A stretch of DNA of 64,000 bases from an uncultured Planctomycetia bacterium (GTDB taxonomy: Bacteria; Omnitrophota; Gorgyraeia; Duberdicusellales; 4484-171), in the NCBI GenBank assembly GCA_964489445.1, contig CAZAYU010000001.1, positions 4,394 through 68,393 on the forward strand, read 5' to 3'. A model generated the notes under the pieces. It saw nothing but the letters and a program-made list of their open reading frames with translations, did no database searches and was not told the origin of the DNA. The translations under genes and the position numbers were made by a program. How positions within the stretch are numbered: the stretch's first letter is position 1; the number at the start of each line of letters is the position of its first letter. Positions 4,521 to 21,086 of the stretch are shown here, one piece after another.

Positions 4521-4572
4521 GTAATCATACAACAATAGTCAAAAATCACGACAAACTAATAGAGGGAGTATT

Positions 4573-5130
4573 ATGGAAAAAAAAGATATTCTAGTCCGAG
4601 AGAGCGAAATCAACGATTTTAATGAAATTATGGAAGTTGAAGAACGGGCATTTGGCAATGTGAAAGAAGCTAAATTAACGGCGGATCTACTGAAAGATAA
4701 AACTGCTGAGCCGATCCTTTCACTACTTGCGTTTGATAATGACAAAGCTGTTGGATATATTTTATTTACAAGAGTGTATATTAATGAGATGACAAAAACG
4801 CAGCCATTAGCATATATCCTTGCACCTTTAGCTATTTTGCCTGAATATCAAAAACAAGGAATAGGAGGGTTGTTAATTAACGAAGGACTAAAAAGGCTAA
4901 AAGAAAAAGGTTCTGAAATGGTTTTTGTTTTAGGACATATGAAATATTATCCAAAGTTTGGCTTTATTCCAGATGCAAAGAAAATAGGCTTTTCTGCACC
5001 ATATCCAATTCCTGAAAAACATGCAAATGCATGGATGGTTCAATCACTGAATGCAGATGGATTTATATTGGGCAAAGGGAGAGTGGTATGTGCTGATGGA
5101 TTGAATAAATCGGAACATTGGAGAGAATAA
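4573..5130 (+). CDS. GNAT family N-acetyltransferase
   Basis: RBS AGAGGGAG. Acetyl-CoA-binding region QKQGIGGLLINEGLKRLKEKG matches the Q/RxxGxG/A motif, and the overall layout is GNAT-like. Confidence 0.8.
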   Translation: MEKKDILVRESEINDFNEIMEVEERAFGNVKEAKLTADLLKDKTAEPILSLLAFDNDKAVGYILFTRVYINEMTKTQPLAYILAPLAILPEYQKQGIGGLLINEGLKRLKEKGSEMVFVLGHMKYYPKFGFIPDAKKIGFSAPYPIPEKHANAWMVQSLNADGFILGKGRVVCADGLNKSEHWRE

Positions 5131-5482
5131 GCAAAACATCCCATTAAATGATTATAACATTATTCTAGATGTATTTTATACATTAAGAGTTGCGAAACCT
5201 GTCCAATAATGTGCCCATTTCGTGCCCCAGAATACAAATGAAAAATTAGTTTGAGTCCTACGCGAGGAGTTTTTTTGAAAATCCGAACTTTTTATTGGAT
5301 TAGAAATAAGCCCCAGTTACAAAAATGTAGTTGAGGTTTTTTGTTTATTCAGGAATATGAGATTATATATATGCGATGGAATATTCTTTGATATAATATG
5401 GAGAAGTATTTTTGGGTTAGAATGCTAGCCCTATTATTAAAAGGGCGGTTCATGATCAGCCTCTACAAACGATGGAGAGAGT

Positions 5483-6382
5483 ATGAAACAACACAGAATC
5501 TTTAGGTTATTACTTTTAATAATTCTTTTGATGGGTGGGCTCGGACTTTCGCCTGTCCTTGCGCAGGCCGGTCCTCATCAGAACGTTGAGACGATCAAAA
5601 TAGCGGCCTCTGTTGATGGTATAGAGATCAATTATTATGAGTATGGGCAAAAGGGGCCAATACTCGTGTTCGTTCACGGATGGAGTTGCGACGCGAGCTA
5701 CTGGAGAGAGCAGGTCGAGTATTTCAAGGAGAAGTATCACGTGGTTCTGATCGATCTGGCTGGGCATGGTCGTTCTGGGAGTAAGCGTGAGAATTATACC
5801 ATGGAAGCTTTTGGCCAAGATGTGAAGGCTGTTGTCGAAAGTATCGGGACAGAGAAGGTGGTTTTGATCGGTCATTCCATGGGTGTCCTTGTGATCGCAG
5901 AGGCGGCCCGCTTGATGTCAGAGAAGACTATTGGATTGGTCGCGGTTGATGATCTTCAGAATGTGGAATATCCCCTGGGGGAAGAACAGTTCAAGGAGAT
6001 GACCACACCATTCAAAGAAGATTTCAAGCAAGGTGTAAGAGGTTTTGTTGTAGACATGCTGCGTTCTGATAACTCGCCGGTCAATGAATGGGTGGTCTCT
6101 GACATGTCTTTAGCTGACCCCAAGGTTGCGGTCAGTGCAATGAACGGATCATTAGGTGGGTATCTGACAGGTGATGTGGCCAAGTTGTTCGATGAGTTGG
6201 ATGTTCCGGTTGTGGCTGTGAACACCGACCTTTGGCCAACAGATGTCGAAGCGAACAGACGGCACATAAAGGACTTTGAACTGATCGAGTTGGACGGACT
6301 GGATCATTTTCTGATGCTTAAAGCGCCTGAGCGTTTTAACCCCGCGCTTGAACAAGCTGTTAAAATGATACTCAAGAAATAA
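5483..6382 (+). CDS. alpha/beta hydrolase fold protein with an N-terminal signal peptide
   Basis: Signal peptide LLLIILLMGGLGLSPVLAQA. HGW oxyanion region and GHSMG nucleophile elbow, with a C-terminal D..H pair. GC content is clearly higher than in the flanking DNA. Confidence 0.8.
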   Translation: MKQHRIFRLLLLIILLMGGLGLSPVLAQAGPHQNVETIKIAASVDGIEINYYEYGQKGPILVFVHGWSCDASYWREQVEYFKEKYHVVLIDLAGHGRSGSKRENYTMEAFGQDVKAVVESIGTEKVVLIGHSMGVLVIAEAARLMSEKTIGLVAVDDLQNVEYPLGEEQFKEMTTPFKEDFKQGVRGFVVDMLRSDNSPVNEWVVSDMSLADPKVAVSAMNGSLGGYLTGDVAKLFDELDVPVVAVNTDLWPTDVEANRRHIKDFELIELDGLDHFLMLKAPERFNPALEQAVKMILKK

Positions 6383-6422
6383 AAAAGAAAGCGCTTATGA
6401 GGTGGATATGAATAAGACAATG

Positions 6423-6445
6423 AAGGGGCCAGACCCCTTTTCTTG
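6423..6445 (+). terminator. rho-independent terminator after the alpha/beta hydrolase gene
   Basis: AAGGGG-CCAGA-CCCCTT hairpin followed by a T-rich run. Confidence 0.45.
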
Positions 6446-6547
6446 CATTAAACAATTTCACCTGACATTAATCGCTTTTCCCTTGATAATAACGTCAATA
6501 CGCTATAATCATTGATAGTAAAGGAGGATTGAGGAATGACCTAAAGG

Positions 6548-6567
6548 AATCCTCTCCCCTCCGTTTT
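6548..6567. repeat. 20-bp direct repeat of the tRNA-Ser 3' end (att-like)
   Basis: AATCCTCTCCCCTCCGTTTT is identical to 4453-4472, the last 16 nt of tRNA-Ser plus 4 nt of flank. Confidence 0.75.
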
Positions 6568-6640
6568 AATTTTTTCTTCGAAAAAAAGAAAACGGACCTC
6601 GAACGAAGTGAGAGGTCTTGTGAATCAACTTCTTCGAAAA

Positions 6641-7208
6641 AAGACAACGAATTCTGGCGAGACACCGCCCGAATCAGAGTCCGTAAAGATATTTTATCGA
6701 TATCCAGAGGCGAGAAGGTAAATAGCTTTTCACAATTTGCATCAATCCACCTCTTTAAAACGGCTAATTGTTCCATTGTTTTCTCGGTAATAACTATTTT
6801 CTAGGACCGTCAAAATTCCCGGTGTGAATTTTTCCTGGCACTTCAGTTTTAAAAATCTCTTCCCTTAACAGGTTCGAGATACCGTGCTTTTAAAGTCTCA
6901 GAGAGCCTCCTTTTAAAATTGTTATTGCCTCCAAGACGTGGGGGAAAGAATAGAGGGGTTAGTAGGACAGTAATTTGCGCATTAAATATACTCTTGTGTG
7001 TTCCTTAGATTTGATGTATATTTTTGTTAGGGTGCAATTAAGTAAGACGTTTGTGGTTTTCTGCTACTGTTTTTAAAATTAAAATAGATGAGTTGGTGGG
7101 GAGAAACAAGTAGGTTTCTGGTGGTAACTTTTTATGATAGGAGTTGCTTTTTATTTTTAAAAGGGGATTAGCAAAGGAAAAGTAAGGTGTACCTAAATAG
7201 GACATCTG
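6641..7208. repeat. Island repeat family, copy A. It lacks the left inverted-repeat end and finishes with the right-end motif GGTGTACCTAAATAGGACATCTG at 7186-7208.
   Basis: Shares blocks of about 330 bp (GAGTCCGTAAAGATATTTTATCGATATCCAGAGGCGAGA ... TTGATGTATATTTTTGTTAGGGTG) with copies at 8854-9110, 10968-11383 and 12572-12988. A degenerate internal right-end motif lies at 7031-7053. Confidence 0.8.
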
Positions 7209-7247
7209 TAGTATCACTAATAGGACAAGCGAAATAATTTAACTCAA

Positions 7248-8741
7248 TTGAAAAAACAAAAAGTTATATCCTTCCTTGTTGGTTTATTTTTTGTTATTTT
7301 ATGTCTTGAAACAGGACTAAGAATAGTCGGATGGATTTACCAAGATAAAACCAGAAATATTGATTTTCCAGCCACTAAGAAAGATGGTCAATACACCATA
7401 TTATGTTTGGGTGATTCCTTTACTTATGGATTAGGAGCCCCTGAAGGTAAAGACTACCCTAGACGACTGGAAGATCTACTTAAGACCAGGCTAAAAAAAG
7501 AAAAAATTAAAGTTATTAACTACGGTCGGGCAGGAAAAAACACAGCATACATTCTAGATAAGACGCAATATATTATAAATAAGCAAAAACCGGATTTAAT
7601 TATTTTTCTAGCAGGATCAGCCAATATTTGGGATTTATCCGGATATAAAACATATCTGGAAAAAATAAATTTTGCTTCATGGACACTTGAACAATTATAT
7701 AATCTTCGTATTTTTAAATTGATAAAACTTTCAATCTTAAACATAAAGAAGAATAAAGTAAATAAACTGCTTTTAAAAACTGACAAACACATCTCTGCTA
7801 ACTCGGAATTAAAAAATAGCGATATAAAATTTTTAAAGGGCCAAATAAAAAAATATCCAAATATAGGGGTTAACTACGCTAAACTGGGAAGGATCTACTT
7901 CAAACAAAACGATCCTGAAAAGGCTCTAACGTATTTCAAAAAAGGAATTGCTGCCGCCCCCAATACTATTGATAGCTACTACAACATGGGGCAAATCTAT
8001 CTTAGAATGCATAAAAGAGAAAAAGCATTGGAGTGGTTTAGAAAAACAGCTGTTTTGTTTCCAAATAATGCGAAAAATTGCACAATCATCGGACGGATTC
8101 TCAAGAATCAACAAAAATACCAAGAGGCAAGAGAATGGTTCAAAAAAGCACTAAAAATAAATCCAAAATCAGGGGAGGCTTATTGCGGTATGGCTTGGAC
8201 TTACGGACAAAATAGTGAGTTTGAAACAGCAATAGAATGGTTCAAAAAGGGAACTATTGCTGATCCAAACAGCATTGACAATTACTACGGTTTAGGACAA
8301 ATTTATCGTGCCCAGCATAAATATGATGAAGGACTAGCATTTTTCCAATCAGTCAATACAAAATGCTCGGAAGTAAAACAATTTATCAGAATTTTTGAAA
8401 AAAAAGAAAAATATACCCGTGAAATAACAAATTGGATAGAATCAGACACCCGAGGTATTATTGAGATATGCGTCAAAAACAATATTCCTATAATTTTACA
8501 AAATTATCCAGAAAAATACGAGGGGTTCGATTGGAGTAGTATTTTCAATAATATTGCCAAACAATACTCCCTTCCTATAGTAGACCAATATCAATCTTTT
8601 AATGAGTTATGGAAACAAGGAGAAAAAAGAGATGATTACTTTGTTCAAGACGGACATTGTAATGCTAAAGGATATGCTGCAATGGCAAAAAACGTATACG
8701 ATAAAATAATAGAATTAAAATTAATTGATAAACTTAATTAA
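7248..8741 (+). CDS. SGNH/GDSL hydrolase-family protein with an inserted TPR-repeat region
   Basis: N-terminal signal/TM segment then GDSFTYG (GDSL block I). TPR-like repeats occupy about aa 200-340. A C-terminal DGHCN (DxxH catalytic block) is present. The start is TTG at 7248 and the true start is uncertain. Confidence 0.65.
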   Translation: MKKQKVISFLVGLFFVILCLETGLRIVGWIYQDKTRNIDFPATKKDGQYTILCLGDSFTYGLGAPEGKDYPRRLEDLLKTRLKKEKIKVINYGRAGKNTAYILDKTQYIINKQKPDLIIFLAGSANIWDLSGYKTYLEKINFASWTLEQLYNLRIFKLIKLSILNIKKNKVNKLLLKTDKHISANSELKNSDIKFLKGQIKKYPNIGVNYAKLGRIYFKQNDPEKALTYFKKGIAAAPNTIDSYYNMGQIYLRMHKREKALEWFRKTAVLFPNNAKNCTIIGRILKNQQKYQEAREWFKKALKINPKSGEAYCGMAWTYGQNSEFETAIEWFKKGTIADPNSIDNYYGLGQIYRAQHKYDEGLAFFQSVNTKCSEVKQFIRIFEKKEKYTREITNWIESDTRGIIEICVKNNIPIILQNYPEKYEGFDWSSIFNNIAKQYSLPIVDQYQSFNELWKQGEKRDDYFVQDGHCNAKGYAAMAKNVYDKIIELKLIDKLN

Positions 8742-8853
8742 CAAAACTCACTATCCAAATACTCAAAATCTGATATACAATCATTTAACTACTTATCGTA
8801 TTCCATAAAAACATTATAATATCATTTGAAAAAGCCTTAAAACTGCTAAAATT

Positions 8854-9110
8854 AGATTTGCCAGACGTCCTATTTAGTACACCCTGCCATTAAAGACAAC
8901 GGACTCTGACGAGGCACCGCCACGAGTTAGAGTCCGTAAAGATATTTTATCGATATCCAGAGGCGAGAGGGTAAATAGCTTTTCACAATTTGCATTAATT
9001 CACCTCTTTAAAACGGCTAATTGTTCCATTGTTTTCTCGGTAATAACTATTTTCTAGGACCGTCAAAATTCCCGGCGTGAATTTTTCCTGGCACTTTGGC
9101 TTTAAATCTT
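8854..9110. repeat. Island repeat family, copy B. The left inverted-repeat motif is at 8862-8883 and the right half is truncated.
   Basis: Begins AGATTTGCCAGACGTCCTATTTA-GTACACC about 115 nt after the stop at 8741. Homology to copies A and D runs to about 9110, then diverges into a promoter-like sequence. Confidence 0.8.
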
Positions 9111-9112
9111 TC

Positions 9113-9141
9113 TTGACAGTTTTTTTGATCCGCGTTAGTAT
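9113..9141 (+). promoter_or_regulatory. sigma70-like promoter (TTGACA, 17-nt spacer, TAGTAT)
   Basis: TTGACA at 9113-9118, a 17-nt spacer, then TAGTAT at 9136-9141, about 110 nt upstream of the ATG at 9251. Confidence 0.5.
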
Positions 9142-9201
9142 ATAGTTAATTAGTTAAGTCCCGAGTTAGAGGAATAAATCCCGGACTTTAAAAAAGTAAA
9201 A

Positions 9202-9236
9202 CCTTCACTGGAAACGGTGAGGGATTTTTTATTTTT
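9202..9236 (+). terminator. leader hairpin plus T-tract (candidate attenuator) upstream of the TPR gene
   Basis: CCTTCAC-tggaaacg-GTGAGGG stem followed by GATTTTTTATTTTT. It ends 15 nt before the start codon at 9251. Confidence 0.45.
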
Positions 9237-9250
9237 AGGGAGATTTAAAC

Positions 9251-10924
9251 ATGAAGACAATTAAGTCATTTATTTTAATTCTAGTATTTTTTCTAATGGT
9301 TTTACCATCTGCATTTGCTAAGATTGAAGCCAATTTACTTAAACCACAAGATTTTCTTGGTGGACCTTCGAAAAAGCAAAAAATAAGAAAAACAATTACC
9401 AAACTTGAGCAAGCAATCAGCGAAGATCCAGATAACTATGAACTTTATGAGATGCTTGCTTTTGTTTGTGATCGGGGAAGGTTTTATGAAAAATCTCTGG
9501 AAGCACTTAAGCAGACGATAAAATATTATCCTGAAGGAGAAAAAGGGTTAGATATACTTTACGGAAATATTGCGAGAACATATATTATTCTTGATCGTTT
9601 AGATGAAGCCAAGCCGATTATTGATAAATCTTTAGAACTTAATTCTAAAAACATTGTTAACCATATAATTTTAGTAGAATACTATGTTTTAAAGAATAAG
9701 TATAAAGAAGCAGCCTTGGAATTAAAGCTGTTGACTGAACTTGATGAAACAGTAGATTTCTATCACGAGCTTTATGCTTCTAAGCTAGATAAGGGAGAGA
9801 AATATGATAACTTGGTAGCACTTTTTAGAGAAGCAGTTGCTGTTAATCCTGGAAGTCATTTATCGCATAGAACATTAGGGACAGCTATAAGAAATTCAGT
9901 AAATAATTTTGAGGAAAATTTTCCTTTGGCAATGGCGGAATACGAAAAAGCTTTGGAGATAGACCCAAAGTATTTACCCACATATATTAGCGTAGGTGAT
10001 GCCTATATGTTACTTGCCGTAAAAACAGAAAATAGAGAATATTTTGAGGATGCTTTAGCCTGGTTGAATAAAGGCAGTGAAATTGATCCTGGTAATGCAA
10101 GGATTGCCTATGTAATTGGTGAAGTATACTTTAGAATGGAAAATTACGATGAAGCTGCAAAGAAATTGGAATATGCTATAAATGAAGGGATAGATGAACC
10201 AAGGATAATTAATATGTTAGCAGTAGCCTGCAATAATAAAGCATATGCTTTATATGCCGAAGGAAAAAAATTAGATCAAGCTTTAGAATTAATAAATAAG
10301 GCACTCAGATTAAATCCAAAAGACGGAATTAGCTTAGGAACAAAAGCGGAGATTTTGTATAAGCTGGAAAGGTATGAAGAAGCTTATGAATATATTAAAA
10401 GAGCTTTGGTCTTAGAACCAGACTATGAAGAAATGAAGCAAGATTTAGTGAATATTGAAGAGGCTATGAAGTGGGATACTGGTAAAGAAGCCCGAGAAAT
10501 TGCCATTGAGAAAGGTATTCTACCGAAGAATATAGATGAAGCAGTTATTAAAGATTTGCTTGAAAGAAAAGATGTTCTTTCGCTATGGTTGATAGCCGAT
10601 AGATTGAAAAAAATTAGGATAGTAGATCGCATGAAAGCATTAGCCTATGAAGATGGAGTAATCATTAGGAGTCATTCGGAGTATTACGTAGAAGAGATTA
10701 ATAAAGGTCTTTACACCTCAATAAAAAACGAAGATAAGCACAACAACATGGCTAATCCAGTAGAATTTGTTTTTAAACTTATTGCGCTTGAACAAGGAGA
10801 TTACGATAATGGTATGGGTAAAGTAGAAGCGCTCAGAGATTATGCTGGAGATGAGCTGTTTGAGTGGTATAAAACGATGTGTCCAAAGAAGTATCAGTAT
10901 TTAGTTGAGATGGATAAACAATAG
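9251..10924 (+). CDS. TPR-repeat protein with an N-terminal signal peptide
   Basis: Signal peptide FILILVFFLMVLPSAFA. Multiple TPR-like helical repeats with periodic Y/A/L and E/D/P residues. Confidence 0.7.
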   Translation: MKTIKSFILILVFFLMVLPSAFAKIEANLLKPQDFLGGPSKKQKIRKTITKLEQAISEDPDNYELYEMLAFVCDRGRFYEKSLEALKQTIKYYPEGEKGLDILYGNIARTYIILDRLDEAKPIIDKSLELNSKNIVNHIILVEYYVLKNKYKEAALELKLLTELDETVDFYHELYASKLDKGEKYDNLVALFREAVAVNPGSHLSHRTLGTAIRNSVNNFEENFPLAMAEYEKALEIDPKYLPTYISVGDAYMLLAVKTENREYFEDALAWLNKGSEIDPGNARIAYVIGEVYFRMENYDEAAKKLEYAINEGIDEPRIINMLAVACNNKAYALYAEGKKLDQALELINKALRLNPKDGISLGTKAEILYKLERYEEAYEYIKRALVLEPDYEEMKQDLVNIEEAMKWDTGKEAREIAIEKGILPKNIDEAVIKDLLERKDVLSLWLIADRLKKIRIVDRMKALAYEDGVIIRSHSEYYVEEINKGLYTSIKNEDKHNNMANPVEFVFKLIALEQGDYDNGMGKVEALRDYAGDELFEWYKTMCPKKYQYLVEMDKQ

Positions 10925-10967
10925 AGGGTTGCTTTGGGCCATAAGTAAAAGGCTGTGGATGATCTAG

Positions 10968-11383
10968 TGACCAGGCGTCCTATTTGGGTACACCCTGCTA
11001 CCATGACAAAACCTAAGTAATATCCACGCTAAAAATAGCTTGAAGTTATCGTTTAGAAACATACACTGTGGATAAGAGGGAAAATGCAAGAAACAAGACT
11101 TGACCACGTTTTTCCATTCAGCAATAACTAATTTCTAAGGATCGGTAAAATTCCCGGCGTGAATTTTTCCTGGCACTTCAGTTTTAAAAATCTCTCGCCC
11201 TAACAGGCTCAAGATACCATGCTTTTAAAGCTTCAGAGCCTCCTTTTAAAATTGTTATTGCCTCAAGGTGCAATTTCCTCTTTAAATATACTCTTGTGTG
11301 TTTCTTAGATTTGATGTATATTTTGATTATGTGTCTAGGATATATTATTGAGTTTAGTAAGGTGTACCTAAATAGAACGACTG
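10968..11383. repeat. Island repeat family, copy C. Both ends are present (left motif 10971-10992, right motif 11361-11383) and the left internal half is a variant.
   Basis: CCAGGCGTCCTATTTGGGTACACCC lies 45 nt after the stop at 10924. The right two-thirds is shared with copies A and D. The right end is GGTGTACCTAAATAGAACGACTG. Confidence 0.8.
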
Positions 11384-11452
11384 TAGATAGTTAAATTTGC
11401 CTAATAGGGTGGAGAGCAAAGTGTTTGAACCCTATTAGGGACACTATTAACC

Positions 11453-12019
11453 ATGAATATAGCAAAGCTTGATGCTGCTAAGCGACAGTTAGATACTGCT
11501 ATCAATTTATTTTTTAAAGAAGCTGACTCAGTTTCAATGCATACCCTAACTGCTGCTGCTCATCAAATATTAATGGATTTAGCTAAATTAAAAGGGGCAA
11601 TGTCTTTTATAAAAACCCCGACACTGATTAAAAAGGAAATGCAGAAAAAATATCTTTATGTGATTAATGAAGCAGAAAATTTTTTTAAACATGCAGCAAA
11701 AGATTCAGATAAATTATTGGAATTTAATCCTGAACAGACTGAATTTTTATTGTTAGATGCGGTGGAAATGTATACGCAATTAACCAAGGAAGCCCCTGAA
11801 GATATGTCTATATATAGAATGTGGTTTTTCATAAAACATCCTGAAATTATTAGCGATGAAACTCGTAAGGGAATAGAGGCTAAAAACCTTAGCATTCAAA
11901 AATACAGGGCGATGCATAAGCTAAAATTTTACACAAAGATGAAAGACTCTTTTATGTATAGGGCGGAGAACAAAGTGTTCAAGTCCTATTCGGGAATTTT
12001 ATTTTATGATTATTTGTGA
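11453..12019 (+). CDS. hypothetical protein (188 aa)
   Basis: Intact ORF with no recognisable family by eye. A remnant of a homologous 3' coding end lies just upstream at 11404-11443. Confidence 0.5.
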   Translation: MNIAKLDAAKRQLDTAINLFFKEADSVSMHTLTAAAHQILMDLAKLKGAMSFIKTPTLIKKEMQKKYLYVINEAENFFKHAAKDSDKLLEFNPEQTEFLLLDAVEMYTQLTKEAPEDMSIYRMWFFIKHPEIISDETRKGIEAKNLSIQKYRAMHKLKFYTKMKDSFMYRAENKVFKSYSGILFYDYL

Positions 12020-12037
12020 GTAAAAAAGGAGGAGCTA

Positions 12038-12556
12038 ATGGCTAATCTAAAGGATCGTATTATTCGGGCGGCTAAGTTGGATGTTAATCTCTATGAAGAA
12101 GTTGAGGCTGACAAGGGAGCATTCTGGCAGGCCATGACTGTTGTTGTTCTTTCCAGTATCGCAGCCGGAATAGGCAGCATCACGAAAGTTGGGCTTGGCG
12201 GAATTCTTATCTTGACAATTGCATCCCTTGTTGGATGGTATCTCTGGGCATTACTTACTTATTTTATTGGCACCAAGCTCCTTCCTGAACCTCAGACGAA
12301 AGCAGACATAGGTGAATTATTGCGGACTATCGGTTTTTCAAGTTCTCCTGGTTTAATTCGAGTGTTTGGTATTATCCCAGGATTAGGAATAATAGTTTAT
12401 CCTGCAGCGTTAATATGGATGTTGGTAGCAATGATTATCGCGGTGAGACAGGCTCTCGATTACAAAAGCACTTTACGAGCTATCGGGGTTTGCGTAATCA
12501 GCTGGGTTATTCAAATGCTAATTCTTATTTTTCTGTTTGGACTAAAACCAGCCTAA
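12038..12556 (+). CDS. Yip1-domain membrane protein
   Basis: RBS AAGGAGG 7 nt upstream. Soluble N-terminus (RIIRAAKLDVNLYEEVEADKGAFWQA) followed by 4-5 transmembrane helices, as in Yip1/YIP-family proteins. Confidence 0.65.
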   Translation: MANLKDRIIRAAKLDVNLYEEVEADKGAFWQAMTVVVLSSIAAGIGSITKVGLGGILILTIASLVGWYLWALLTYFIGTKLLPEPQTKADIGELLRTIGFSSSPGLIRVFGIIPGLGIIVYPAALIWMLVAMIIAVRQALDYKSTLRAIGVCVISWVIQMLILIFLFGLKPA

Positions 12557-12571
12557 TATATATGCAAGAGC

Positions 12572-12988
12572 AGATTTGCCAGACGTCCTATTTGGGTACA
12601 CCCTGCTACTAAAGACAATGAATTCTGACGAGGCTCTGTCCAATTCAGAGTCCGTAAAGATATTTTATCGATATCCAGAGGCGAGAGGGTAAATAGCTTT
12701 TCGCAATTTGCATCATCACCCCACTAAAACGGTTAATTATTCCATTGTTTTTTCGGCAATAACTAATTTCTAAGGATCGGTAAAATTCCCAGCGCGAATT
12801 TTTCCTGGCACTTCAGTTTTAAAAATCTCTCACCTTAACAGGCTTAAGATACCATGCTTTTAAAGCTTCAGAGCCTCCTTTTAAAATTGTTATTGCCTCA
12901 AGGTGCAATTTCCTCTTTAAATATAATCTTGTGTGTTTCTTATATTTGATGTATATTTTTGTTAGGGTGTACTCAAATAAGACGTTTG
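12572..12988. repeat. Island repeat family, copy D, full length. Left motif at 12580-12602 and a degenerate right motif at 12966-12988.
   Basis: AGATTTGCCAGACGTCCTATTTGGGTACACCCTGCTACTAAAGACAATGAATTCTGACGAGGC... lies 16 nt after the stop at 12556. Collinear with copy A over about 400 bp. Confidence 0.85.
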
Positions 12989-13026
12989 TGGTTTTTGTCT
13001 AATATTAATCAAAATGGAGGTATCTT

Positions 13027-13374
13027 ATGAATGATGTAAAAGATATGATAGAAAAAATTAAAAAATTTAGAGATGATAGGGACTGGATGCAATTCCATGA
13101 CCCCAAGAATATGGCTGTTTCAATAATTTTAGAAGCTTCCGAGCTACTAGAACATTTCCAATGGAAGACTATTAAAGAAGTAGATGAATGCGCAAAACAA
13201 AATCAAGATGAGATTCAAGATGAAATTGCTGACATCGCTTTATATCTTTTTGAGATGGCAGATAATTTAGGAATAGACTTAATTAAAGCCATGGAAAAAA
13301 AGTTAGCAAAAAATGAAAAAAAATATCCAGTAAGCAAGGCTCGGGGGAAACATACTAAATACAATAGACTATGA
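13027..13374 (+). CDS. MazG-like nucleotide pyrophosphohydrolase
   Basis: RBS GGAGG. All-alpha MazG/HisE-type signature: DWMQFHDPKNMAVSIILEASELLEHFQWK ... EIADIALYLFEMAD. Confidence 0.75.
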   Translation: MNDVKDMIEKIKKFRDDRDWMQFHDPKNMAVSIILEASELLEHFQWKTIKEVDECAKQNQDEIQDEIADIALYLFEMADNLGIDLIKAMEKKLAKNEKKYPVSKARGKHTKYNRL

Positions 13375-15755
13375 TAGTTTACAGTAGTACAGTCAAAAAG
13401 TTTATTAATGATATTTGTGAGAATAGAATTGATGAAGAAATTGATAGATCTTGCTTAAAAGCTCTTGGGCGTAGCTTTTTAAAGAGGGAAGGAAAAGCGT
13501 GGCGTAATTCTTTAGGATATATGGAAAGGGTTGTCCAAAAGGCCGACCTACCCGATGATTGCGGTGTTTTGATAGAGTACACTATTCCATCAACATTCAA
13601 GCGAATTGATTTTATTGTTTCTGGCAAAGACGAGCAAGGTAATAACAACTTTATTATCGTTGAGTTGAAGCAGTGGGAAACAGCTTCAAGTACCCATAAG
13701 GATTCAGTTGTCACTACTTTGTTGGGAGGTTGTCCTAATTGCGAAACTACACACCCATCGTATCAAGCTTATTCATACAAGATGTTTATGAAAGATTTTA
13801 ATGAAAATGTTTACAAAGGTAGTTTGTTGCCTTTTTCGTGTGCTTACCTTCATAATTACATTGAAGGGAATCCGGAGCCTTTGAGAGAAGAGGCATACGA
13901 AGAAATAGTTTCTGATACCCCGGTATTTTTTAAGCATGATAGCGAAAAGTTATCTAATTTTCTTAAAAAACACGTTGGCAAAGGTTTTGGCGAGACTATC
14001 TTGTATGAAATCGAAGCGGGTAGAATTCGTCCTAGTAGGAAGCTGATAGATCATGTTTGTGAAATGTTTAAAGGTAATAAATCGTTTATATTGATTGATG
14101 ATCAAAAAATTGCTTACGAGAAAGCAGTCGACTCAGCATTGCATGCTACAAAAAAATCAGTTTTAATAATAAAAGGTGGACCAGGAACGGGTAAGTCCGT
14201 TATTTCGATGAATGTTTTGGGCGGTATTTTAAGCGGTGAAAAGAATGTTGCTTTTGTCGCGCCTAATGCGTCATTTAGAAATGTTTTGCTTCAAAGTCTA
14301 GCGAAAGAGAATAAGTCCGCAAGGATTAAGCATTTGTTCAAAGGTTCGGCTTGTTTCCATGATGTGGAGCAGCATACCTATGATGTTTTGATTGTGGATG
14401 AAGCTCATCGATTAAAAAACAAATCAGCATATCAATATCAAGGCGATAATCAGGTTGAGGATTTAATTAAGTCGTCTTTTGTTACTATTTTCTTTATTGA
14501 TGATAACCAAAGGATTAGGCCTGAAGATATCGGAACGGTAGAGGAGCTAAAACGTGTAGCAAGTAAATACACTGCTAACGTTGAGGTGATTGAACTCACA
14601 GCTCAATTTAGATGTTCTGGCACGGAAGGCTATGTCAATTGGCTAGATGATGTTTTGCATATCCGGCAAACTGCTAATTATGATGGATGGAATCAGAAAG
14701 AGTTTGATTTTAAAATTTGTGCTACACCGCAAGAGTTACATTCGAGAATAAAACAGAAAAATCATGAAAGATTTAACGCTAGAATGTTAGCAGGGTATGC
14801 ATGGAGTTGGACCGCTAAGGATGAAGGTAACAATAACGCTCAGGCAAATGATGTGAATATAGATGAACACGGTTTTGCTTTGCCCTGGAATTCTAGATCA
14901 ATGCGTACAAGCTGGGCGATTGAAAAAGACGGAGTTAATCAGGTTGGTTGCATTCATACCTCGCAGGGCTTAGAGTTTGACTATGTTGGGGTTATTGTCG
15001 GCAAAGATTTAGTTTTTAACTCAGATAATTGCGAATATTCGGCAGATTGGCAAAACTACAAAGATATGGCGGGTAAGAAGGGGCTGAGAGAAGATCTTGC
15101 ACAATTGAGCGTACTTATAAGAAACATTTATAAAACATTAATGACACGTGGAATGAGGGGGTGTTATGTCTATTTTTGTGATAAAAATGTAGAGCACTAT
15201 TTTAAACAAAGGTTAGATACTGTTACACAAAGCAAAAAATTAGTGCTTTCCGATATTGTTCCTGAAAAAGATCAGTTAACAACCGAACAAGATATCGCAG
15301 ATAGGTTGAAGTATACAGAATATTTACCAGTTTATTCTCTTGAAGCAGCTGCGGGTAAGTTTGGCGAAGGCATGGATACATATGAAAATGGCTGGATAAA
15401 AACTAACATTAATAAAAAATTAAATAAATGCATGTTTGTAATTAAAGTAGTTGGCCATTCAATGGAGCCATTAATACCAGATAATAGCTATTGTATTTTC
15501 AGAACAGGTGTTGAAGGAACGAGAAATAATAAAATAGTTTTAGTTCAACATCAAGGTATTGCCGATAGCGATACTAGTGGAAAATATACAGTCAAAAAGT
15601 ATAGCAGTAAGAAAACATCTAAGGATGATGGCGATGCTTGGGAACATGAGGAGATAATACTTTCACCTTTAAATGGTGATTATGAGCCAATGGTTATAAA
15701 AAATTCTGAGGAAGGGGACTTCAAAGTTATTGCTGAATTCATTACAGTGCTTTGA
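13371..15755 (+). CDS. fusion protein: PD-(D/E)xK-like nuclease motif, DUF2075/Schlafen-like P-loop ATPase, LexA-type S24 peptidase domain
   Basis: ATGA start/stop overlap with the MazG-like ORF. N-terminus has RIDFIVSG...IIVELKQW, a D...E-x-K nuclease motif. Walker A is GGPGTGKSV and Walker B/DEAH-like is LIVDEAHRL. C-terminus has LEAAAG-KFGEG (candidate Ala-Gly autocleavage site), VGHSMEP (G-x-S-M nucleophile motif of LexA/UmuD) and KYTVKKY (catalytic Lys region). Confidence 0.75.
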   Translation: MIVYSSTVKKFINDICENRIDEEIDRSCLKALGRSFLKREGKAWRNSLGYMERVVQKADLPDDCGVLIEYTIPSTFKRIDFIVSGKDEQGNNNFIIVELKQWETASSTHKDSVVTTLLGGCPNCETTHPSYQAYSYKMFMKDFNENVYKGSLLPFSCAYLHNYIEGNPEPLREEAYEEIVSDTPVFFKHDSEKLSNFLKKHVGKGFGETILYEIEAGRIRPSRKLIDHVCEMFKGNKSFILIDDQKIAYEKAVDSALHATKKSVLIIKGGPGTGKSVISMNVLGGILSGEKNVAFVAPNASFRNVLLQSLAKENKSARIKHLFKGSACFHDVEQHTYDVLIVDEAHRLKNKSAYQYQGDNQVEDLIKSSFVTIFFIDDNQRIRPEDIGTVEELKRVASKYTANVEVIELTAQFRCSGTEGYVNWLDDVLHIRQTANYDGWNQKEFDFKICATPQELHSRIKQKNHERFNARMLAGYAWSWTAKDEGNNNAQANDVNIDEHGFALPWNSRSMRTSWAIEKDGVNQVGCIHTSQGLEFDYVGVIVGKDLVFNSDNCEYSADWQNYKDMAGKKGLREDLAQLSVLIRNIYKTLMTRGMRGCYVYFCDKNVEHYFKQRLDTVTQSKKLVLSDIVPEKDQLTTEQDIADRLKYTEYLPVYSLEAAAGKFGEGMDTYENGWIKTNINKKLNKCMFVIKVVGHSMEPLIPDNSYCIFRTGVEGTRNNKIVLVQHQGIADSDTSGKYTVKKYSSKKTSKDDGDAWEHEEIILSPLNGDYEPMVIKNSEEGDFKVIAEFITVL

Positions 15756-15793
15756 TTTTTTATGAAACGCGAATATTATTCTGCTACAATTTC

Positions 15794-15825
15794 AATTACC
15801 AGACGTCCTATTTAGGTGCACCCTA
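15794..15825. repeat. solo copy of the island-repeat left-end motif
   Basis: AATTACCAGACGTCCTATTTAGGTGCACCCTA lies 38 nt after the stop at 15755, in the same orientation as the other copies. Confidence 0.75.
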
Positions 15826-15915
15826 CAAAAAATAACACCTTTTTTAATTAAATTTAATCTCTTTTTGGTTTCTAGTTTGCTTTAAATCTTGGAATACTTA
15901 AAGCAAATTGCTTTA

Positions 15916-15944
15916 TTGACTGCTTTTTAAATGGTATGTATAAT
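15916..15944 (+). promoter_or_regulatory. sigma70 consensus-like promoter (TTGACT, 17-nt spacer, TATAAT)
   Basis: TTGACT at 15916-15921, a 17-nt spacer, TATAAT at 15939-15944. The ATG at 15963 follows about 12 nt after the predicted transcription start, so the leader is short or absent. Confidence 0.5.
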
Positions 15945-15962
15945 CATTAGTTTAATACGCTT

Positions 15963-17546
15963 ATGAAAGATAGCTCAAAACGAATAATTTGTAGCATTTT
16001 AGCCTTCCAGCTATTCTGTTTTAATCAACACGCCATAGCCTATGCGGCCACCCAGATTACAAAAAAAACAAAAGCCCCTAGGATTCGTATTTATGATGCT
16101 CCGGATGCTGAAAATAAATTCTACAAAGGGGATTTTGACGGTGCAGCATTTATCTTTGATGCCTTAGGACAAAAGAAAGATAAAAATTTCGCCCTTTTTA
16201 ATAATCAATTAGGCTCTATATATTTAGCTAAAGGTGATTACGAAAAAGCCTTAGACTCTTTTCTTAAAGCCTATTATCTAATGAATGATATATCAGCTTT
16301 TACGAATTTAGAATCAGGGTCTGTTTCTTTATTCGGTAGTGAGGCAAAAAAGGCTTATAAGGGCGATCCTTATGAAAAGGTTTTTAATTCTTTATATGTT
16401 GGCCTACTGCTTGCAGACAAAGGGGATTTTGATAATGCGCTGGCAGCTTTTAAAAATGGAATATTGTGTGATTCTGACGTAGCAGCAGAGCTATACCGAA
16501 GTGACGTTTTTTCATTATATCTTTTTGCGGCTAGATTTACTTTAAAGCAAAATAATCCATCATTAAGTAAAGATTATTTTAATAAGGCCATAGAGGCTTA
16601 TCGTTTAGCATCTCCTTTAAATAGTTCCCTGGTCTCGCAAGAGCAGGCATTAGTTACTTTATTGTATGAAAAACAAGAGGAGTTTGAAAAGCTAGAAAAC
16701 ACCGGAGAACTTTCTAAGCCAGGAAATAATGAAGGCATGTTTGTTTCAGGATCTGACAATGGCTCCAATGAGAATAAAGGAACGGAAAAAGTCTATGGCA
16801 AAAAAACACTTGAAAAGATGGAAGTACTTTCTGGGGAAATAGGAGAACTTGACAAAAATATAAAAAATCTATCAAGCCAAAGAGAAGAGAACAACAGAAA
16901 TATAGATATTTCTATTCTTAAGCCATTTATCGACTTAGAAAATAACACATTTTTATGTCTTGAGATTGGACGAGGACCACTAAAATACCAAATTGGCCAG
17001 TATGGTCAATTAGCGGTATTTACTGTTAAGCCTCACGGGATCAACGCGGTTAAAATTTTTGTAGACGATAAAGAAGTGAATACGAATTTGCTTTCGTCAA
17101 ATAATGATGTTTTTTTTCAGGCAACAACAAGAGGCGGAAGAGAAATGGATAGTATTCTTAAAGGACAAGCTAAGTTTAAGCAAACTACAGCCGAGACGTC
17201 TTTAGCGTTTATTCGAACGTCACAAAATATGCAAAACCAGGCTAACCAGATGGCTTCGACAAACCCTAACTATGATGCATCAGGACAGTATGCCGCAGCA
17301 GGAGTGATAGCCTTAGCCGGCCTTATAATAGCGTTAACGAGTGCAGCAGCTAATCCTGTTGCAGATGTAAGACATTGGAGCCTTTTGCCGGGAAACATGG
17401 TTATTTTACCTTTTTCTTTAGGGTCCGGTACACATAGTATTAAAATCGAGTGTTATAATAATGAGTCTACTCTTTCGGATAGTTTGGAACTTGGCATTAA
17501 TGTAAGAGAGGACAAAGATAATTTTATATTTAAAAGAATTTTTTAG
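15963..17546 (+). CDS. hypothetical secreted protein with an N-terminal TPR-like region
   Basis: Signal peptide ILAFQLFCFNQHAIAYAA, TPR-like helical N-terminal half, and a C-terminal region with a hydrophobic segment (AAAGVIALAGLIIALT). Confidence 0.55.
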   Translation: MKDSSKRIICSILAFQLFCFNQHAIAYAATQITKKTKAPRIRIYDAPDAENKFYKGDFDGAAFIFDALGQKKDKNFALFNNQLGSIYLAKGDYEKALDSFLKAYYLMNDISAFTNLESGSVSLFGSEAKKAYKGDPYEKVFNSLYVGLLLADKGDFDNALAAFKNGILCDSDVAAELYRSDVFSLYLFAARFTLKQNNPSLSKDYFNKAIEAYRLASPLNSSLVSQEQALVTLLYEKQEEFEKLENTGELSKPGNNEGMFVSGSDNGSNENKGTEKVYGKKTLEKMEVLSGEIGELDKNIKNLSSQREENNRNIDISILKPFIDLENNTFLCLEIGRGPLKYQIGQYGQLAVFTVKPHGINAVKIFVDDKEVNTNLLSSNNDVFFQATTRGGREMDSILKGQAKFKQTTAETSLAFIRTSQNMQNQANQMASTNPNYDASGQYAAAGVIALAGLIIALTSAAANPVADVRHWSLLPGNMVILPFSLGSGTHSIKIECYNNESTLSDSLELGINVREDKDNFIFKRIF

Positions 17547-17556
17547 ATTATAAAAA

Positions 17557-18120
17557 ATGGTAACTATGGGAAAGAAGTCAGTTGTAGTTTTGTTGTTAAT
17601 TAGTTGTTTATTCTTTGCTGGATGTGCAAACGGCCGAATTCTATTGAGAAAAGGACAAAAAGAGCTAAAGCTAGATACCGATGAGGGCGGTGTGATCTTT
17701 TCTCTGGCAATTGTCGGATCTGCTACCTTTGCCCCCCATAGTATAACAATACAAGAAATAAACCAGTACAAGGAATACACAAAGAAGAAACTTGAAAGTA
17801 TACCGCTTGTCGATGCATCAGACAATCTGTATTTGTATCATTTAAAGCTTCCCAACGGAACTTACAGATTAGTTTCATTCTATGGTTGGCTTGGTGGATT
17901 TTTTGGAAAGTATCAATTTATGCCTTGTGATAAAATATTTGATGTTCCAGCCGAGGAAATCACCTATTTGGGAAGAATTGAGACAAATATATATTCTCAA
18001 GGTAATTCTTGGAATAATGAAATATTAGTGTTAGATTATTACAAAGAAGATACTAAAGCTTTCTTGGGTAAGTATCCAATACTAACGGAGCAAAAAATTA
18101 ATAAAGATTTGTTCTATTAA
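17557..18120 (+). CDS. hypothetical lipoprotein
   Basis: Lipobox LFFAGC near the N-terminus. Operon-like spacing, 10 nt after the preceding gene. Confidence 0.55.
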   Translation: MVTMGKKSVVVLLLISCLFFAGCANGRILLRKGQKELKLDTDEGGVIFSLAIVGSATFAPHSITIQEINQYKEYTKKKLESIPLVDASDNLYLYHLKLPNGTYRLVSFYGWLGGFFGKYQFMPCDKIFDVPAEEITYLGRIETNIYSQGNSWNNEILVLDYYKEDTKAFLGKYPILTEQKINKDLFY

Positions 18121-18135
18121 AAAAGGAAGGTAACT

Positions 18136-18732
18136 ATGAAAAGAACTGTTCTACTTGCAATCGTATGTGTTTTTTGTTCTGCTTGTGCAACCGGTCCGCA
18201 TTCTGTTTCACATTCAACGACAGTGCTGCCTGATTCCGATGACGGCTTAGGCGGAACCGGAATTGAAGCCACAGATGTTAGAACTGTTGCCAGAAAAATG
18301 GCTGTCTCAATATTAGATGTCCCAGAAATAATGAATGCTTCGGGTATGCCTCGTATAGTACTATTGCCGGTTGAAAATTCTACACGTTTCATTATCAATA
18401 AGGATATTTTTACGAAAAAGATAAGAATAGAGTTAAATAAAAACGCTACAGGCAAAGTCAGATTTTTAGCCCGAGCAAGAATTGAAGACATCATGAAAGA
18501 AAGAGAAGCAAAAAGAGAAGGAGTATTTACAGCTAGCAAAGAGGCTGACATGTTGGGGGTGGATTTCTATTTAACCGGAGAGCTAACCGGATTAAGCAAG
18601 GCTAGTAAAGGACATCGTTCGGACTATATTTTAATGGCATTTCAGTTAATTGATGCTGAAACAAGTGACATTATTTGGGAAGATGCCTATGAGATTAAAA
18701 GAGTGGGTATTACTGGTGTAGCTTATCAATAA
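18136..18732 (+). CDS. lipoprotein with an LpoB/CsgG-like fold
   Basis: RBS AAGGAAGG. Lipobox FCSACAT. Resembles the LpoB/CsgG family (...VARKMAVSILD ... VDFYLTGELTGL). Confidence 0.55.
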   Translation: MKRTVLLAIVCVFCSACATGPHSVSHSTTVLPDSDDGLGGTGIEATDVRTVARKMAVSILDVPEIMNASGMPRIVLLPVENSTRFIINKDIFTKKIRIELNKNATGKVRFLARARIEDIMKEREAKREGVFTASKEADMLGVDFYLTGELTGLSKASKGHRSDYILMAFQLIDAETSDIIWEDAYEIKRVGITGVAYQ

Positions 18733-18760
18733 GCAATAAGTATTAAAAAAGGAGAAAGTA

Positions 18761-19183
18761 GTGATTAATAAAATTATAGCTTTATCAGTAGTTGTTTTAG
18801 CTGTAAGTGGTTGTGCTGCCGGCCCATATAAGGCCGTTAGATATGATACTTCAAAAGATTTAGAACGCCAATCTAACGTTGTTATCATGGACAAAAGCCT
18901 TAGTAACCAATTTTCAAGAAAACGAATTGTTATAGTTGGCGAAAAATCAGAGTGGACTCAGGACAATCGACTAAAGGTGTATTGTGAAATTAAGAATATG
19001 AAAAAAGATTTATTAAGACTCCAAGTCCAGACTGTATTTAAAGACCAAAATGATTTTTCAATTGAGTCAGACACAAACTGGGAATTAATTCTTGTTTCAG
19101 GATTTTCTAGTTATGCATATACTACTGTAGCTTTAAACGACAAAGCGAAAAAATACACGATAAGAATAAAATTGGCTGAATAA
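18761..19183 (+). CDS. small lipoprotein (YcfL/DUF1425-like size and context)
   Basis: GTG start with RBS AAGGAGAAAG. Lipobox AVSGCAAG. 140 aa. Confidence 0.5.
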   Translation: MINKIIALSVVVLAVSGCAAGPYKAVRYDTSKDLERQSNVVIMDKSLSNQFSRKRIVIVGEKSEWTQDNRLKVYCEIKNMKKDLLRLQVQTVFKDQNDFSIESDTNWELILVSGFSSYAYTTVALNDKAKKYTIRIKLAE

Positions 19184-19200
19184 TCGGAGAAGGTGAGAAA

Positions 19201-20808
19201 ATGAAAAAAATTAAATACCCATTCTTGATAATGTTTTGGGTTGTAACTTGCTTGTTTTTAGGAAGTTTTGTTTTGGTACCTCACAGCTATTGCGAAGATG
19301 AGGCTAAATTTATATATAACCAAAAACCAATAAAGAAAGTCAAAGAAAAAAATTTAAAGGTACGAGTAGCAATTTCAAGGTTTGATGAAAAAATTGATAT
19401 AGAAGAAAGCCCGTTTAATGAGCGTGAAGATAAAAAAGATGGGGACAGCGCACTAATTGAAATAAAAGATTCTGATGTAAAAATAACCATTGATGAAGAT
19501 GAGGATAAAGATGAAATATCTAAAGGAGAATTCTTAACAGGATTGATTACTAGTGCATTGCAGAAAACAGAGTTATTCGAAGTAGTTGAAAGAAGAGATA
19601 TCAATGAGATTATCCGCGAGATTAATTTCCAAAATTCAAAATGGGTTAAAAGTGATGGCGCGAATGCGCTTGGTAATATTTATGATGTGCAATATATATT
19701 AAATGGGGATCTTCTCCGTAATAAAGAGGGAGAGAAAATCGGTAAACATTATTACACTTTGGCTTTGCGAATGTATAATGTTAATACCGGTGGAATTGTG
19801 TCTTCTTCAACCATCAGCTCTCCATACTTAGAAGAAGCTGTTAGCAATGCAGTGGTTGATTTATCAAAGCAAATTAAAAAAAAACCATGGACATGTAGAA
19901 TAGTTGGGATCAACGATAGTAGGATCTATATTAATGCTGGATTAAAGGATGGTTTGGAAAAACGTGATGTTTTTTATGTGTATCGGGTTGAAGGGGAAAT
20001 TATTGATCCTAAAACTAAGGAAGTTTTAGGGCTGGAGAAAAAGAAAATTGCCAGAATAGAAATTCAAGAAGTGTTAGAAGCTAAACTATCTCAAGTAAAA
20101 GTTATAGAAATATATGATGAAATAAAAGTAGGTGATACTGTTTCAGCAGACAGAATTAATAAAGATAAACAATCCGAGTTAGAGCTATGGAAGAAGATCT
20201 ATAAAGGCAGCGATATCTCTGGTGATAAATTAAGCAAATATTCATTTATCTCTGAAGGTTATTCGCCAGAAGATATTATGACAAATTTTGGAAAAGCTAT
20301 TGTTAAGATACAAGCTGGAACATCGATGGGAAGTGGTTTTATTGTAGATGTAGAAGGCCATATTCTTACCAATTTTCATATAGTCCAAAATGCTACAGTT
20401 ATATCGGCAAAAATGATAGAAAAAAATCAGAATTTCAATAACGTGAAAGTTATAAAAGTCGACCCAGTTAAAGACATAGCCTTGTTAAAAATTGATAATG
20501 CTAATAGTTTGCCAATTGTTGTATTGGGTGACTCAGACAGGCTAAGCGTTGGAGAAAGAGTAGTTGCAATCGGAAATCCACAGGGTTTAGAAAATACCAT
20601 CTCCGATGGCTTAATAAGTGGAATAAGAGAAAACGATGGGGTCAAGCTTATACAGACAAGCGTTCCAGTGACTCATGGCAGTAGCGGAGGACCATTATTT
20701 AATATGCAAGGTGAAGTCATCGGTATAGTAACAGCAGGAATCAAAGAAGCTGGAAATCTTAACTTTGCAGTGCCTATCAATTACGCTAAAGATGAACTTT
20801 TGAATTAG
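19201..20808 (+). CDS. secreted two-domain protein: CsgG/LpoB-like domain plus trypsin-like (S1) serine peptidase
   Basis: RBS GGAGAAGG. N-terminal signal/TM segment. First half has a CsgG-like motif (GEFLTGLITSALQKTELFEVVERRDINEIIRE...YILNGDL). C-terminal half has the His/Asp/Ser triad contexts TNFHIV, DIALLKI and GSSGGPLFN. Confidence 0.7.
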   Translation: MKKIKYPFLIMFWVVTCLFLGSFVLVPHSYCEDEAKFIYNQKPIKKVKEKNLKVRVAISRFDEKIDIEESPFNEREDKKDGDSALIEIKDSDVKITIDEDEDKDEISKGEFLTGLITSALQKTELFEVVERRDINEIIREINFQNSKWVKSDGANALGNIYDVQYILNGDLLRNKEGEKIGKHYYTLALRMYNVNTGGIVSSSTISSPYLEEAVSNAVVDLSKQIKKKPWTCRIVGINDSRIYINAGLKDGLEKRDVFYVYRVEGEIIDPKTKEVLGLEKKKIARIEIQEVLEAKLSQVKVIEIYDEIKVGDTVSADRINKDKQSELELWKKIYKGSDISGDKLSKYSFISEGYSPEDIMTNFGKAIVKIQAGTSMGSGFIVDVEGHILTNFHIVQNATVISAKMIEKNQNFNNVKVIKVDPVKDIALLKIDNANSLPIVVLGDSDRLSVGERVVAIGNPQGLENTISDGLISGIRENDGVKLIQTSVPVTHGSSGGPLFNMQGEVIGIVTAGIKEAGNLNFAVPINYAKDELLN

Positions 20809-20820
20809 TCTACTGTGTAA

Positions 20821-20852
20821 AATTACCAGACGTCCTATTTAGGTACACCCCA
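20821..20852. repeat. solo copy of the island-repeat left-end motif
   Basis: AATTACCAGACGTCCTATTTAGGTACACCCCA lies 12 nt after the stop at 20808, in the same orientation as the other copies. Confidence 0.75.
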
Positions 20853-21086
20853 GAAAGAATAATTGGTTAAATTGATCCCGCCGAGTTGAGAAAAATTATC
20901 AAATTCAGCCTAATTCAATATTTCTTATTAAATAGTAATTCTTAACCTTGTATGTTTCTTAATCGTATCTATTTAAATACATTTGTGTTATACTTAAACC
21001 CATTAAAATTTAAGGATTGAGTGCCTGTGATGCTCAATTTTACGCTCTTTTGCATTTTGAAAAATATCTCCAATAAAGAGGAAAAT

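Follow-up and report, generated by a model that had tools for sequence, protein, structure and literature searches.

GTAG-tagged repeats of an Omnitrophota genome as probable dispersed ends of a RAYT/TIRYT-type Y1 transposase family

A 64-kb stretch of DNA from an uncultured bacterium of Candidatus Omnitrophota (contig CAZAYU010000001.1, positions 4,394 to 68,393; hereafter the window, whose first letter is position 1) carries a series of short repeats between its genes, which a first-pass annotation had described as the 23-bp terminal inverted repeats (TIRs) of a family of ~420-bp elements. In all likelihood, these repeats are the dispersed cognate ends of a family of Y1 (HUH) tyrosine transposases of Candidatus Omnitrophota, of the type of the REP-associated tyrosine transposases (RAYTs; REP, repetitive extragenic palindrome) or TIRYTs. 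We show here that the motif is conserved across species, that inverted copies of it flank a transposase gene, that repeat and enzyme vary together, and that the copies are intergenic with a bias in orientation.

The repeated unit is 27 to 31 nt long, (ATAG)CAGACGTCCTATTTRGGTACACCCTAC, and its reverse complement begins with GTAG (GTAGGG); the 23-bp inverted repeat of the first-pass annotation is the core of this unit. The pattern originally proposed matches, with at most 3 mismatches, 7 sites in the window, against 0 expected from 100 dinucleotide-preserving shuffles, and relaxed scans add the left end of unit c2, which has a 1-nt deletion, and the degenerate right end of unit c1 (Table 1). The nine copies make up three long doublets in inverted arrangement, a truncated copy, and two solos, and all lie between 6.6 and 21 kb, with none in the other 43 kb of the window. 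The genes of this region are all on the + strand. The plus-strand “left ends” start at 8862, 10972, 12580, 15800 and 20827, respectively 120, 47, 23, 44 and 18 nt past the preceding stop codon; the minus-strand “right ends” are those at 7027-7053, 7182-7208, 11357-11383 and 12962-12988, minus-strand copies being placed 38 to 69 nt before start codons. These positions bear out the earlier report of uniformly oriented left ends behind stop codons, and also that of left ends occurring alone near 15794 and 20821, found here as the two solos. Our examination of this genome covered the window and the 7.6 kb 5′ of it, an extension that holds the rRNA operon and in which we found neither further copies of the motif nor a RAYT gene.

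The link with an enzyme comes from other genomes. Inverted copies of the motif bracket a Y1 transposase gene in five loci (L002, L028, L052, L053, and L062), one of them with a 4-mismatch variant of the motif, which supports the proposal, already present in the first-pass annotation, of REP/BIME-type repeats served by a transposase located outside the window. Two of these loci, L002 and L028, were found from the motif: the bracketed open reading frames (ORFs) of 210 to 215 aa match Pfam Y1_Tnp with E = 1e-12 to 1e-14, and their sole NCBIfam match is NF047646, the REP-associated tyrosine transposase, with 58 to 62 bits. At E <= 1e-10, the transposase has 273 homologues, nearly all of ~195 aa; those bearing a source name are labelled as Omnitrophota transposases, and most of the protein clusters are found on one contig each. 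We then reversed the test, starting from the protein: the homologues with 65%, 60%, and 60% identity are those of L052, L053, and L062, all bracketed by the motif, as are all the homologues of at least 60% identity that were looked up. The flanking repeats of L052 are 28 nt long and 100% complementary; those of L053, which carries the variant, are 32 nt long and 97% complementary, with a third copy 20 nt past the upstream gene's stop codon. For the more distant L054 and L055 (46% and 44% identity), the gene is bracketed by different inverted repeats of 30 to 32 nt, and a third copy of L054's own repeat stands 13 nt beyond an upstream stop codon; around the homologue of L056 (40% identity), we did not find a clean inverted pair. 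The repeat changes as the enzyme diverges, and such co-variation is what marks a cognate pair.

The enzyme itself has the features expected of its class. The family alignment shows an invariant H-x-H (H60/H62) and an invariant tyrosine (Y120) in RYIERNP. Compared with solved structures, the family profile finds the E. coli TnpA-REP (4ER8) as best match (E = 1e-6), followed by ISDra2 (2e-4) and IS608 (0.36); a profile was required for this, a search of the PDB with a single sequence giving no match.

To follow the motif in other species, we scanned one genome per bacterial species with its 18-mer core. The scan returned at least 40 loci, so that all copy counts are lower bounds; 38 of these loci come from Candidatus Omnitrophota or from metagenome-assembled genomes (MAGs) labelled as Planctomycetes–Verrucomicrobia–Chlamydiae (PVC), in about 20 different assemblies; counted by species, the motif is present, with 0 to 4 mismatches, in the genomes of at least 20 other Omnitrophota. 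In those loci, the extended 27-mer has 0 to 5 mismatches, where shuffled sequence gives 0 matches, and the constraint on the core is stronger still, with 0 to 3 mismatches over 24 core positions across species. The two hits outside these groups match the core only and are chance, as is probably the single hit of a viral-contig scan, which is limited to the 18-mer core as well. According to our crude ORF calls in the comparison loci, 62 of 65 copies (~95%) are intergenic. Tight inverted doublets are found in L001, L006, L010, L011, L020, L023, L030, and L032, yet most copies are singletons; doublets with spacers of 5 to 30 nt and solo ends are both common across loci, and L031 has four copies on the same strand. 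All inverted doublets within ~150 nt are of a single polarity, with the CAG ends outward and the CTAC/GTAG ends inward. The flanks of the transposase and the long units of the window have this same polarity (CAG outward), and the “elements” of the window, thus, are built like the transposase unit, save that a spacer stands where the gene would be.

Placement and orientation are not random either. If one takes, in the other genomes, the copies located at most 80 nt from the end of a gene, those behind a stop codon are co-directional in 22 cases and opposite in 6, and those ahead of a start codon are inverted in 10 cases and in the gene's own orientation in 2. For solo copies between co-directional genes, 23 are co-oriented vs. 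6 anti-oriented (p = 0.002), with a median of ~24 nt past the stop codon; none was seen between convergent genes. The non-random orientation and post-stop placement first noticed in the window, thus, hold across species. One has to keep in mind that REPs are already documented at distances under 20 bp from the 3′ end of the ORF before them, and that the TAG of their GTAG tag sometimes serves as a stop codon (PMC3733652). Y1 enzymes transpose single strands in a strand-specific manner (PMC6006769), which offers a possible mechanism for the orientation bias; the bias could otherwise come from selection on transcripts, and MAG fragments do not allow a choice between these possibilities. As for folding, only inverted pairs of the motif do so: as single-stranded DNA, the tight doublets of L010 and L011 reach −20 to −22 kcal/mol (z = −6.5 to −7). 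Inspection of the aligned copies gave no convincing covariation for a “double foot” pairing of the 5′ YAG of the unit with its 3′ CTR.

We, thus, propose the following scheme. In enzyme-bearing genomes, two inverted copies with their CAG ends outward around a single gene of ~195 aa constitute a REPtron/TIRtron arrangement, and the same repeat is dispersed in intergenic DNA as solos and as inverted doublets of like polarity. The ~420-bp units of the window would be such doublets, in which a non-coding spacer of ~360 nt stands for the transposase gene, that is, non-autonomous, REPIN-like passengers. A RAYT encoded in another part of this genome, or once present in it, would move or copy the repeats via single-stranded DNA, and only the copies falling outside ORFs would survive; where genes are densely packed, such places are found just behind a stop codon or just ahead of a start codon. 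Their co-orientation would result from strand-specific insertion on the lagging-strand template, from selection on transcripts, or from both.

The units themselves are listed in Table 1, together with the remaining copies of the motif. The first-pass annotation had counted four elements of ~420 bp; the units are real, but c1 has two right ends, c3 is a mosaic, and c4 alone is complete. Unit c1 is 80 to 87% identical to c4 (positions 38 to 418) and 92 to 94% identical to c2, whereas c3 and c4 have in common only a stretch of 213 nt on the right (11117-11329, 95% identity). The left interior of c3 (11034-11113) is a foreign promoter-like piece, 76% similar to 26547-26627; these two segments, the second of which lies upstream of a SpoIIAA-like gene, hold the DnaA-box-like sequence TGTGGATAA. 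A TTGACA-17-TAGTAT site starts where c2 breaks off (~9113). As the similarity between units is mosaic, they have probably spread locally, either through transposition or through exchange between repeats (recombination or gene conversion).

Table 1. Repeats, long units and nested palindrome of the window.
Feature	Position	Strand	Remarks
c1	6640..7056	+	no left REP/TIR; right end 7027-7053 degenerate (7 mismatches), good one 130 nt on (7182-7208)
REP/TIR	7182..7208	-	39 nt 5′ of the SGNH/TPR start (7248); 0 mismatches to the first-pass pattern, 2 to the 27-mer consensus
c2	8856..9113	+	left REP/TIR 8862-8887 (1-nt deletion) and left half; truncated at ~9113
c3	10966..11386	+	REP/TIR 10972-10998 (+) and 11357-11383 (-)
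c4, complete unit	12574..12991	+	REP/TIR 12580-12606 (+) and 12962-12988 (-); non-coding spacer of ~355 nt
Nested imperfect palindrome, ~146 nt	12754..12899	.	arms GGCAATAAC...; long-range pairing in minimum-free-energy and centroid folds
Solo REP/TIR	15800..15826	+	44 nt past the helicase stop codon; co-oriented with transcription
Solo REP/TIR	20827..20853	+	18 nt past the stop codon of the 535-aa trypsin/CsgG-like gene; co-oriented with transcription

The nested palindrome of c4 falls in the region shared between copies; its left part is present in all four, and c2 is truncated inside it. Folding of c4 gives z = −6.3/−6.0 for the whole unit and z = −3.5/−2.4 for the spacer without its terminal repeats, which is, then, moderately structured. 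No ORF is conserved within the ~420-bp unit, as had been stated from the outset. Rfam has no match in or near the elements, either at the gathering threshold over the whole window or at E <= 10 over 6.4-13.1 kb, tRNAs and chance hits aside. We also considered the spacer as a decayed RAYT gene and rejected this possibility, tblastn with 3 and then 120 members of the family giving hits at chance level only; on the minus strand, a weak tblastn cluster (11.6-11.9 kb) is riddled with stop codons. We regard the spacer as passenger DNA carried by a long REPIN-like doublet that would have reached four intergenic regions next to one another, the mosaic identities being explained by recombination between copies.

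Several observations weigh against an origin of the repeats as Y1 transposase ends. By tblastn and Pfam, no RAYT, integrase, or transposase gene was found in the window, and the 7.6 kb 5′ of it have no RAYT gene either, in agreement with the first-pass statement that the 64 kb hold no IntI-type integrase, RAYT, or transposase. All the copies found in the 72 kb examined of this contig, which is at least 269 kb long, are crowded into 15 kb, and copy number is modest elsewhere too, with about 5 to 11 exact copies per fragmented MAG and 11 at most, as lower bounds. The lone 27- to 29-mer has no stable hairpin (−1.1 to −1.7 kcal/mol as single-stranded DNA, z ~ −0.4), which sets it apart from canonical REPs and from the DNA usually read by Y1 enzymes. 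The spacer of ~355 to 360 nt is found in this genome only, a metagenome scan with its most conserved 26-mer returning the window's own sequence alone. The NF047646 scores of the bracketed ORFs are under the curated cut-off of 80 bits. Finally, neither empty sites nor strain polymorphism were found, 10 other assemblies of the locus being 100% identical; mobility is, therefore, deduced from architecture and comparison.

Comparison with known systems places the Omnitrophota repeats close to two of them. In the TIRtrons, with their TIRYTs, a RAYT-like gene lies between TIRs that are not self-complementary and that also make up dispersed families of moderate abundance, as single copies, dimers, or clusters (Di Nocera et al. 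2013, PMC3733652). Here too, a Y1 HUH gene lies within non-self-complementary TIRs of ~30 nt, and the repeat is dispersed as singles, dimers, and clusters. Some TIR types have a GGGGWSAS motif: the L055 TIR, with GGGGACAC, fits it, while the motif studied here is one base off with GGGTACAC, or one or two mismatches away if either GGGTACAC or AGGTACAC is considered. The differences are that Omnitrophota were outside that survey (PMC3733652), that our repeat shares the GTAG tag of true REPs, that one repeat sequence is common to many species, and that some doublets have a long conserved spacer (~360 nt).

The REP/REPIN-RAYT systems (Nunvar 2010; Bertels & Rainey 2011, PMC3116915; Ton-Hoang 2012) are the other close relative: among solved structures, TnpA-REP (4ER8) is nearest to the enzyme, the repeat has the GTAG tag, inverted repeats flank the gene, extragenic copies are found near the 3′ ends of ORFs, inverted doublets form hairpins, and most protein clusters of the enzyme are on a single contig. 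In contrast to REPs, the single unit, although tagged, is not an imperfect palindrome; copy numbers appear to be in the tens rather than in the hundreds, most copies are singletons, and none is seen between convergent genes. Insertion sequences of the IS200/IS605 family (IS608, ISDra2) have the Y1 HUH catalytic core in common with the Omnitrophota enzyme, and strand-specific single-strand transposition of their kind could explain the orientation bias; they differ by their subterminal hairpins, the lack of TIRs, transposases of ~130 to 155 aa, and multiple autonomous copies, whereas the ends here are TIRs of 28 to 32 nt and profile similarity is weaker (2e-4 and 0.36 vs. 1e-6). What makes the present repeats unusual is the non-palindromic GTAG-tagged unit, its conservation in many species, the long conserved spacer, and one-sided duplications of the flank, described below.

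Among the other explanations, the one that survives best is that of a motif serving primarily the host, for example as a conserved protein-binding site or as an element of the 3′ or 5′ untranslated region acting on stability, termination, or translation, with the RAYT link being secondary. The very strong constraint on the core across species would be expected of such a motif, as would its co-orientation with transcription some 24 nt past stop codons; in other genomes, an intrinsic terminator or another fixed hairpin often comes directly after it, and REPs have been exapted for roles of this kind (PMC3733652). Against it, the repeat alters as the RAYT diverges (L053, L054, L055), which suggests that the enzyme recognises it, and not some host factor shared by the phylum; the lone unit is unstructured both as RNA and as DNA; and three relatives of the MazG-helicase gene pair that lies in the repeat-bearing region of the window carry no copy over about 16 kb (7 kb on each side of the module). 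We, thus, consider it unlikely that a host function accounts for the repeats, while noting that such a function is compatible with the RAYT explanation and does not exclude it.

A more speculative idea, to which we give little credence, is that the Omnitrophota Y1 enzyme may do something not known from its relatives: it may cut at two direct post-stop copies, whole gene modules such as toxin-antitoxin pairs or defence-like genes then being excised, and inserted again, as single-stranded circles (an “HUH integron”), or it may insert in a way that leaves one-sided duplications of 6 to 10 nt. If true, either this “HUH integron” or a new insertion chemistry could explain the clustering of copies in accessory blocks beside RAYT genes.

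The first-pass annotation had also evoked the attC logic of integron cassettes. In such a reading, the direct post-stop copies would be attC-like sites at which gene modules would be excised and captured by a tyrosine recombinase or by the Y1 enzyme. There are several points of likeness: attC sites are imperfect repeats found 3′ of ORFs in one orientation, and recognition as single-stranded DNA is their feature. Direct co-oriented copies stand behind five consecutive gene blocks of the window, L031 has its four same-strand copies, toxin-antitoxin pairs lie between motif copies beside the RAYT gene in L053 and L028, the MazG-helicase pair switches neighbourhood between genomes, and the copies of the window cluster in an accessory block beside the rRNA operon and tRNA-Ser, as would suit a role in gene modules, to which the flank duplications described below also leave some small probability. 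The expected partners are nevertheless missing: Pfam finds no IntI or other recombinase in the window, where attI is likewise not found and no Pc promoter is present, and the IntI family was not found beside the repeat arrays of other loci, the partner there being a Y1 enzyme. The folding check for an attC-like bulged hairpin, suggested with the original proposal, was run on the single strand and gave no hairpin for the lone unit. Half of the copies of the window are inverted partners of doublets, foreign to cassette arrays. The MazG-helicase module is found in L057-L059 (69 to 72% identity) with no motif over 7 kb on either side; the site, therefore, does not travel with the gene. Nor did the associated claim fare better, according to which the repeats partition the region into modules each with its own promoter: a scan of the region for promoters and terminators gave no enrichment over shuffles (60 sigma-70-like sites vs. 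54 +/- 8), the only convincing sigma-70-like sites are at +15916-15944 and +9113-9141, and the partition is not demonstrated. A cassette system, thus, appears very improbable.

Scarcely credible, finally, is an ordinary miniature inverted-repeat transposable element (MITE) derived from an insertion sequence with a DDE transposase, TIRs, and target-site duplication: units of ~420 bp without ORF and with terminal inverted repeats of 23 to 27 bp do look like one, but the flanks of c3 and c4 differ without any target-site duplication, the TIR encloses a Y1 (HUH) gene and not a DDE one in five genomes, solo ends and tight doublets with 5- to 30-nt spacers are common, orientation and placement are biased, and conservation in many species is unusual for MITEs.

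The repeats are, thus, best explained by a RAYT/TIRYT-type Y1 lineage that is widespread in Omnitrophota. This is no new class of genetic element, the behaviour of REP/RAYT and TIRtron/TIRYT systems being already known. In the literature searched, we found no paper tying Omnitrophota to RAYT or REPIN and none with the motif string; within this literature, it is the first REP/RAYT-type repeat system described for this uncultured phylum. The motif is usable as an annotation marker, which flags accessory regions; the repeats also account for recurrent assembly breaks, several contigs breaking off within them. The repeat-enzyme pair is unusually conserved, with one repeat for RAYTs that are only 60 to 70% identical, and lends itself to studies of long-term co-evolution between REPIN-like elements and their hosts.

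Some further features of the repeats and their surroundings are worth reporting. Tandem duplications of 6 to 10 nt are found at the outer CAGAC boundary, of which they include the first 2 to 5 nt, for 14 of 70 copies (20%); the inner side has them in 3 of 69 cases, and random positions at a rate of ~1%. They occur in L002, L007, L008, L010, L011, L020, L021, L027, L034, L052, and L053, as well as in L054 with its different repeat; no target-site duplication across elements accompanies them, and we could not explain them by known Y1 chemistry. Outside this genome, a fixed module often comes after the repeat, which may be an intrinsic terminator hairpin (L009, L013, L038), the hairpin GAGATTGCTTCG...CGCAATGAC (L007, L028, L031), or an A/T-rich tract with TTGAAAGAA (L002, L003, L008, L019, L052, L053), the latter corresponding to the promoter-like region before the RAYT gene. 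In L018 (4202-4399), the motif is fused in-frame to a 5′-truncated fragment of a different type of Y1 transposase (...MPNHVHGII...), as if the motif had inserted into, or recombined with, a second transposase gene. The RAYT neighbourhoods (L028, L052-L056) are accessory islands, with toxin-antitoxin pairs (PhdYeFM/ParE, RHH/PemK, AbiE-like), RHS/immunity, HEPN, and methyltransferase genes.

Other features concern the surroundings of the cluster in the window. The MazG-like gene and the fused SLFN-type helicase/Peptidase_S24 gene (13027-15755) form a conserved two-gene module, whose neighbourhoods in L057-L059 are unrelated and not syntenic; this suggests a mobile, defence-like module. These relatives yielded no empty site. 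The GC skew is 0.08 to 0.25 over 4000-26000, a block that includes all the repeats, and about 0 or negative elsewhere, although genes are still on the + strand there; this block may differ in composition or have undergone a recent rearrangement. Immediately 5′ of the window, L061 (1-4100) holds three tRNA genes besides those of the 23S and 5S rRNAs, which places the repeat cluster ~10 kb downstream of an rRNA operon. An exact direct repeat of 69 bp (4155-4223 and 4308-4376) lies directly 5′ of tRNA-Ser (4379-4469), and a 25-nt copy of the 3′ end of this tRNA, 96% identical, is found at 6548-6572. The tRNA gene and its partial copy bracket 4470-6572, with acetyltransferase and alpha/beta-hydrolase genes, in the manner of the att sites of an integrated element whose integrase is gone; the partial copy is placed exactly where c1 loses its left repeat.

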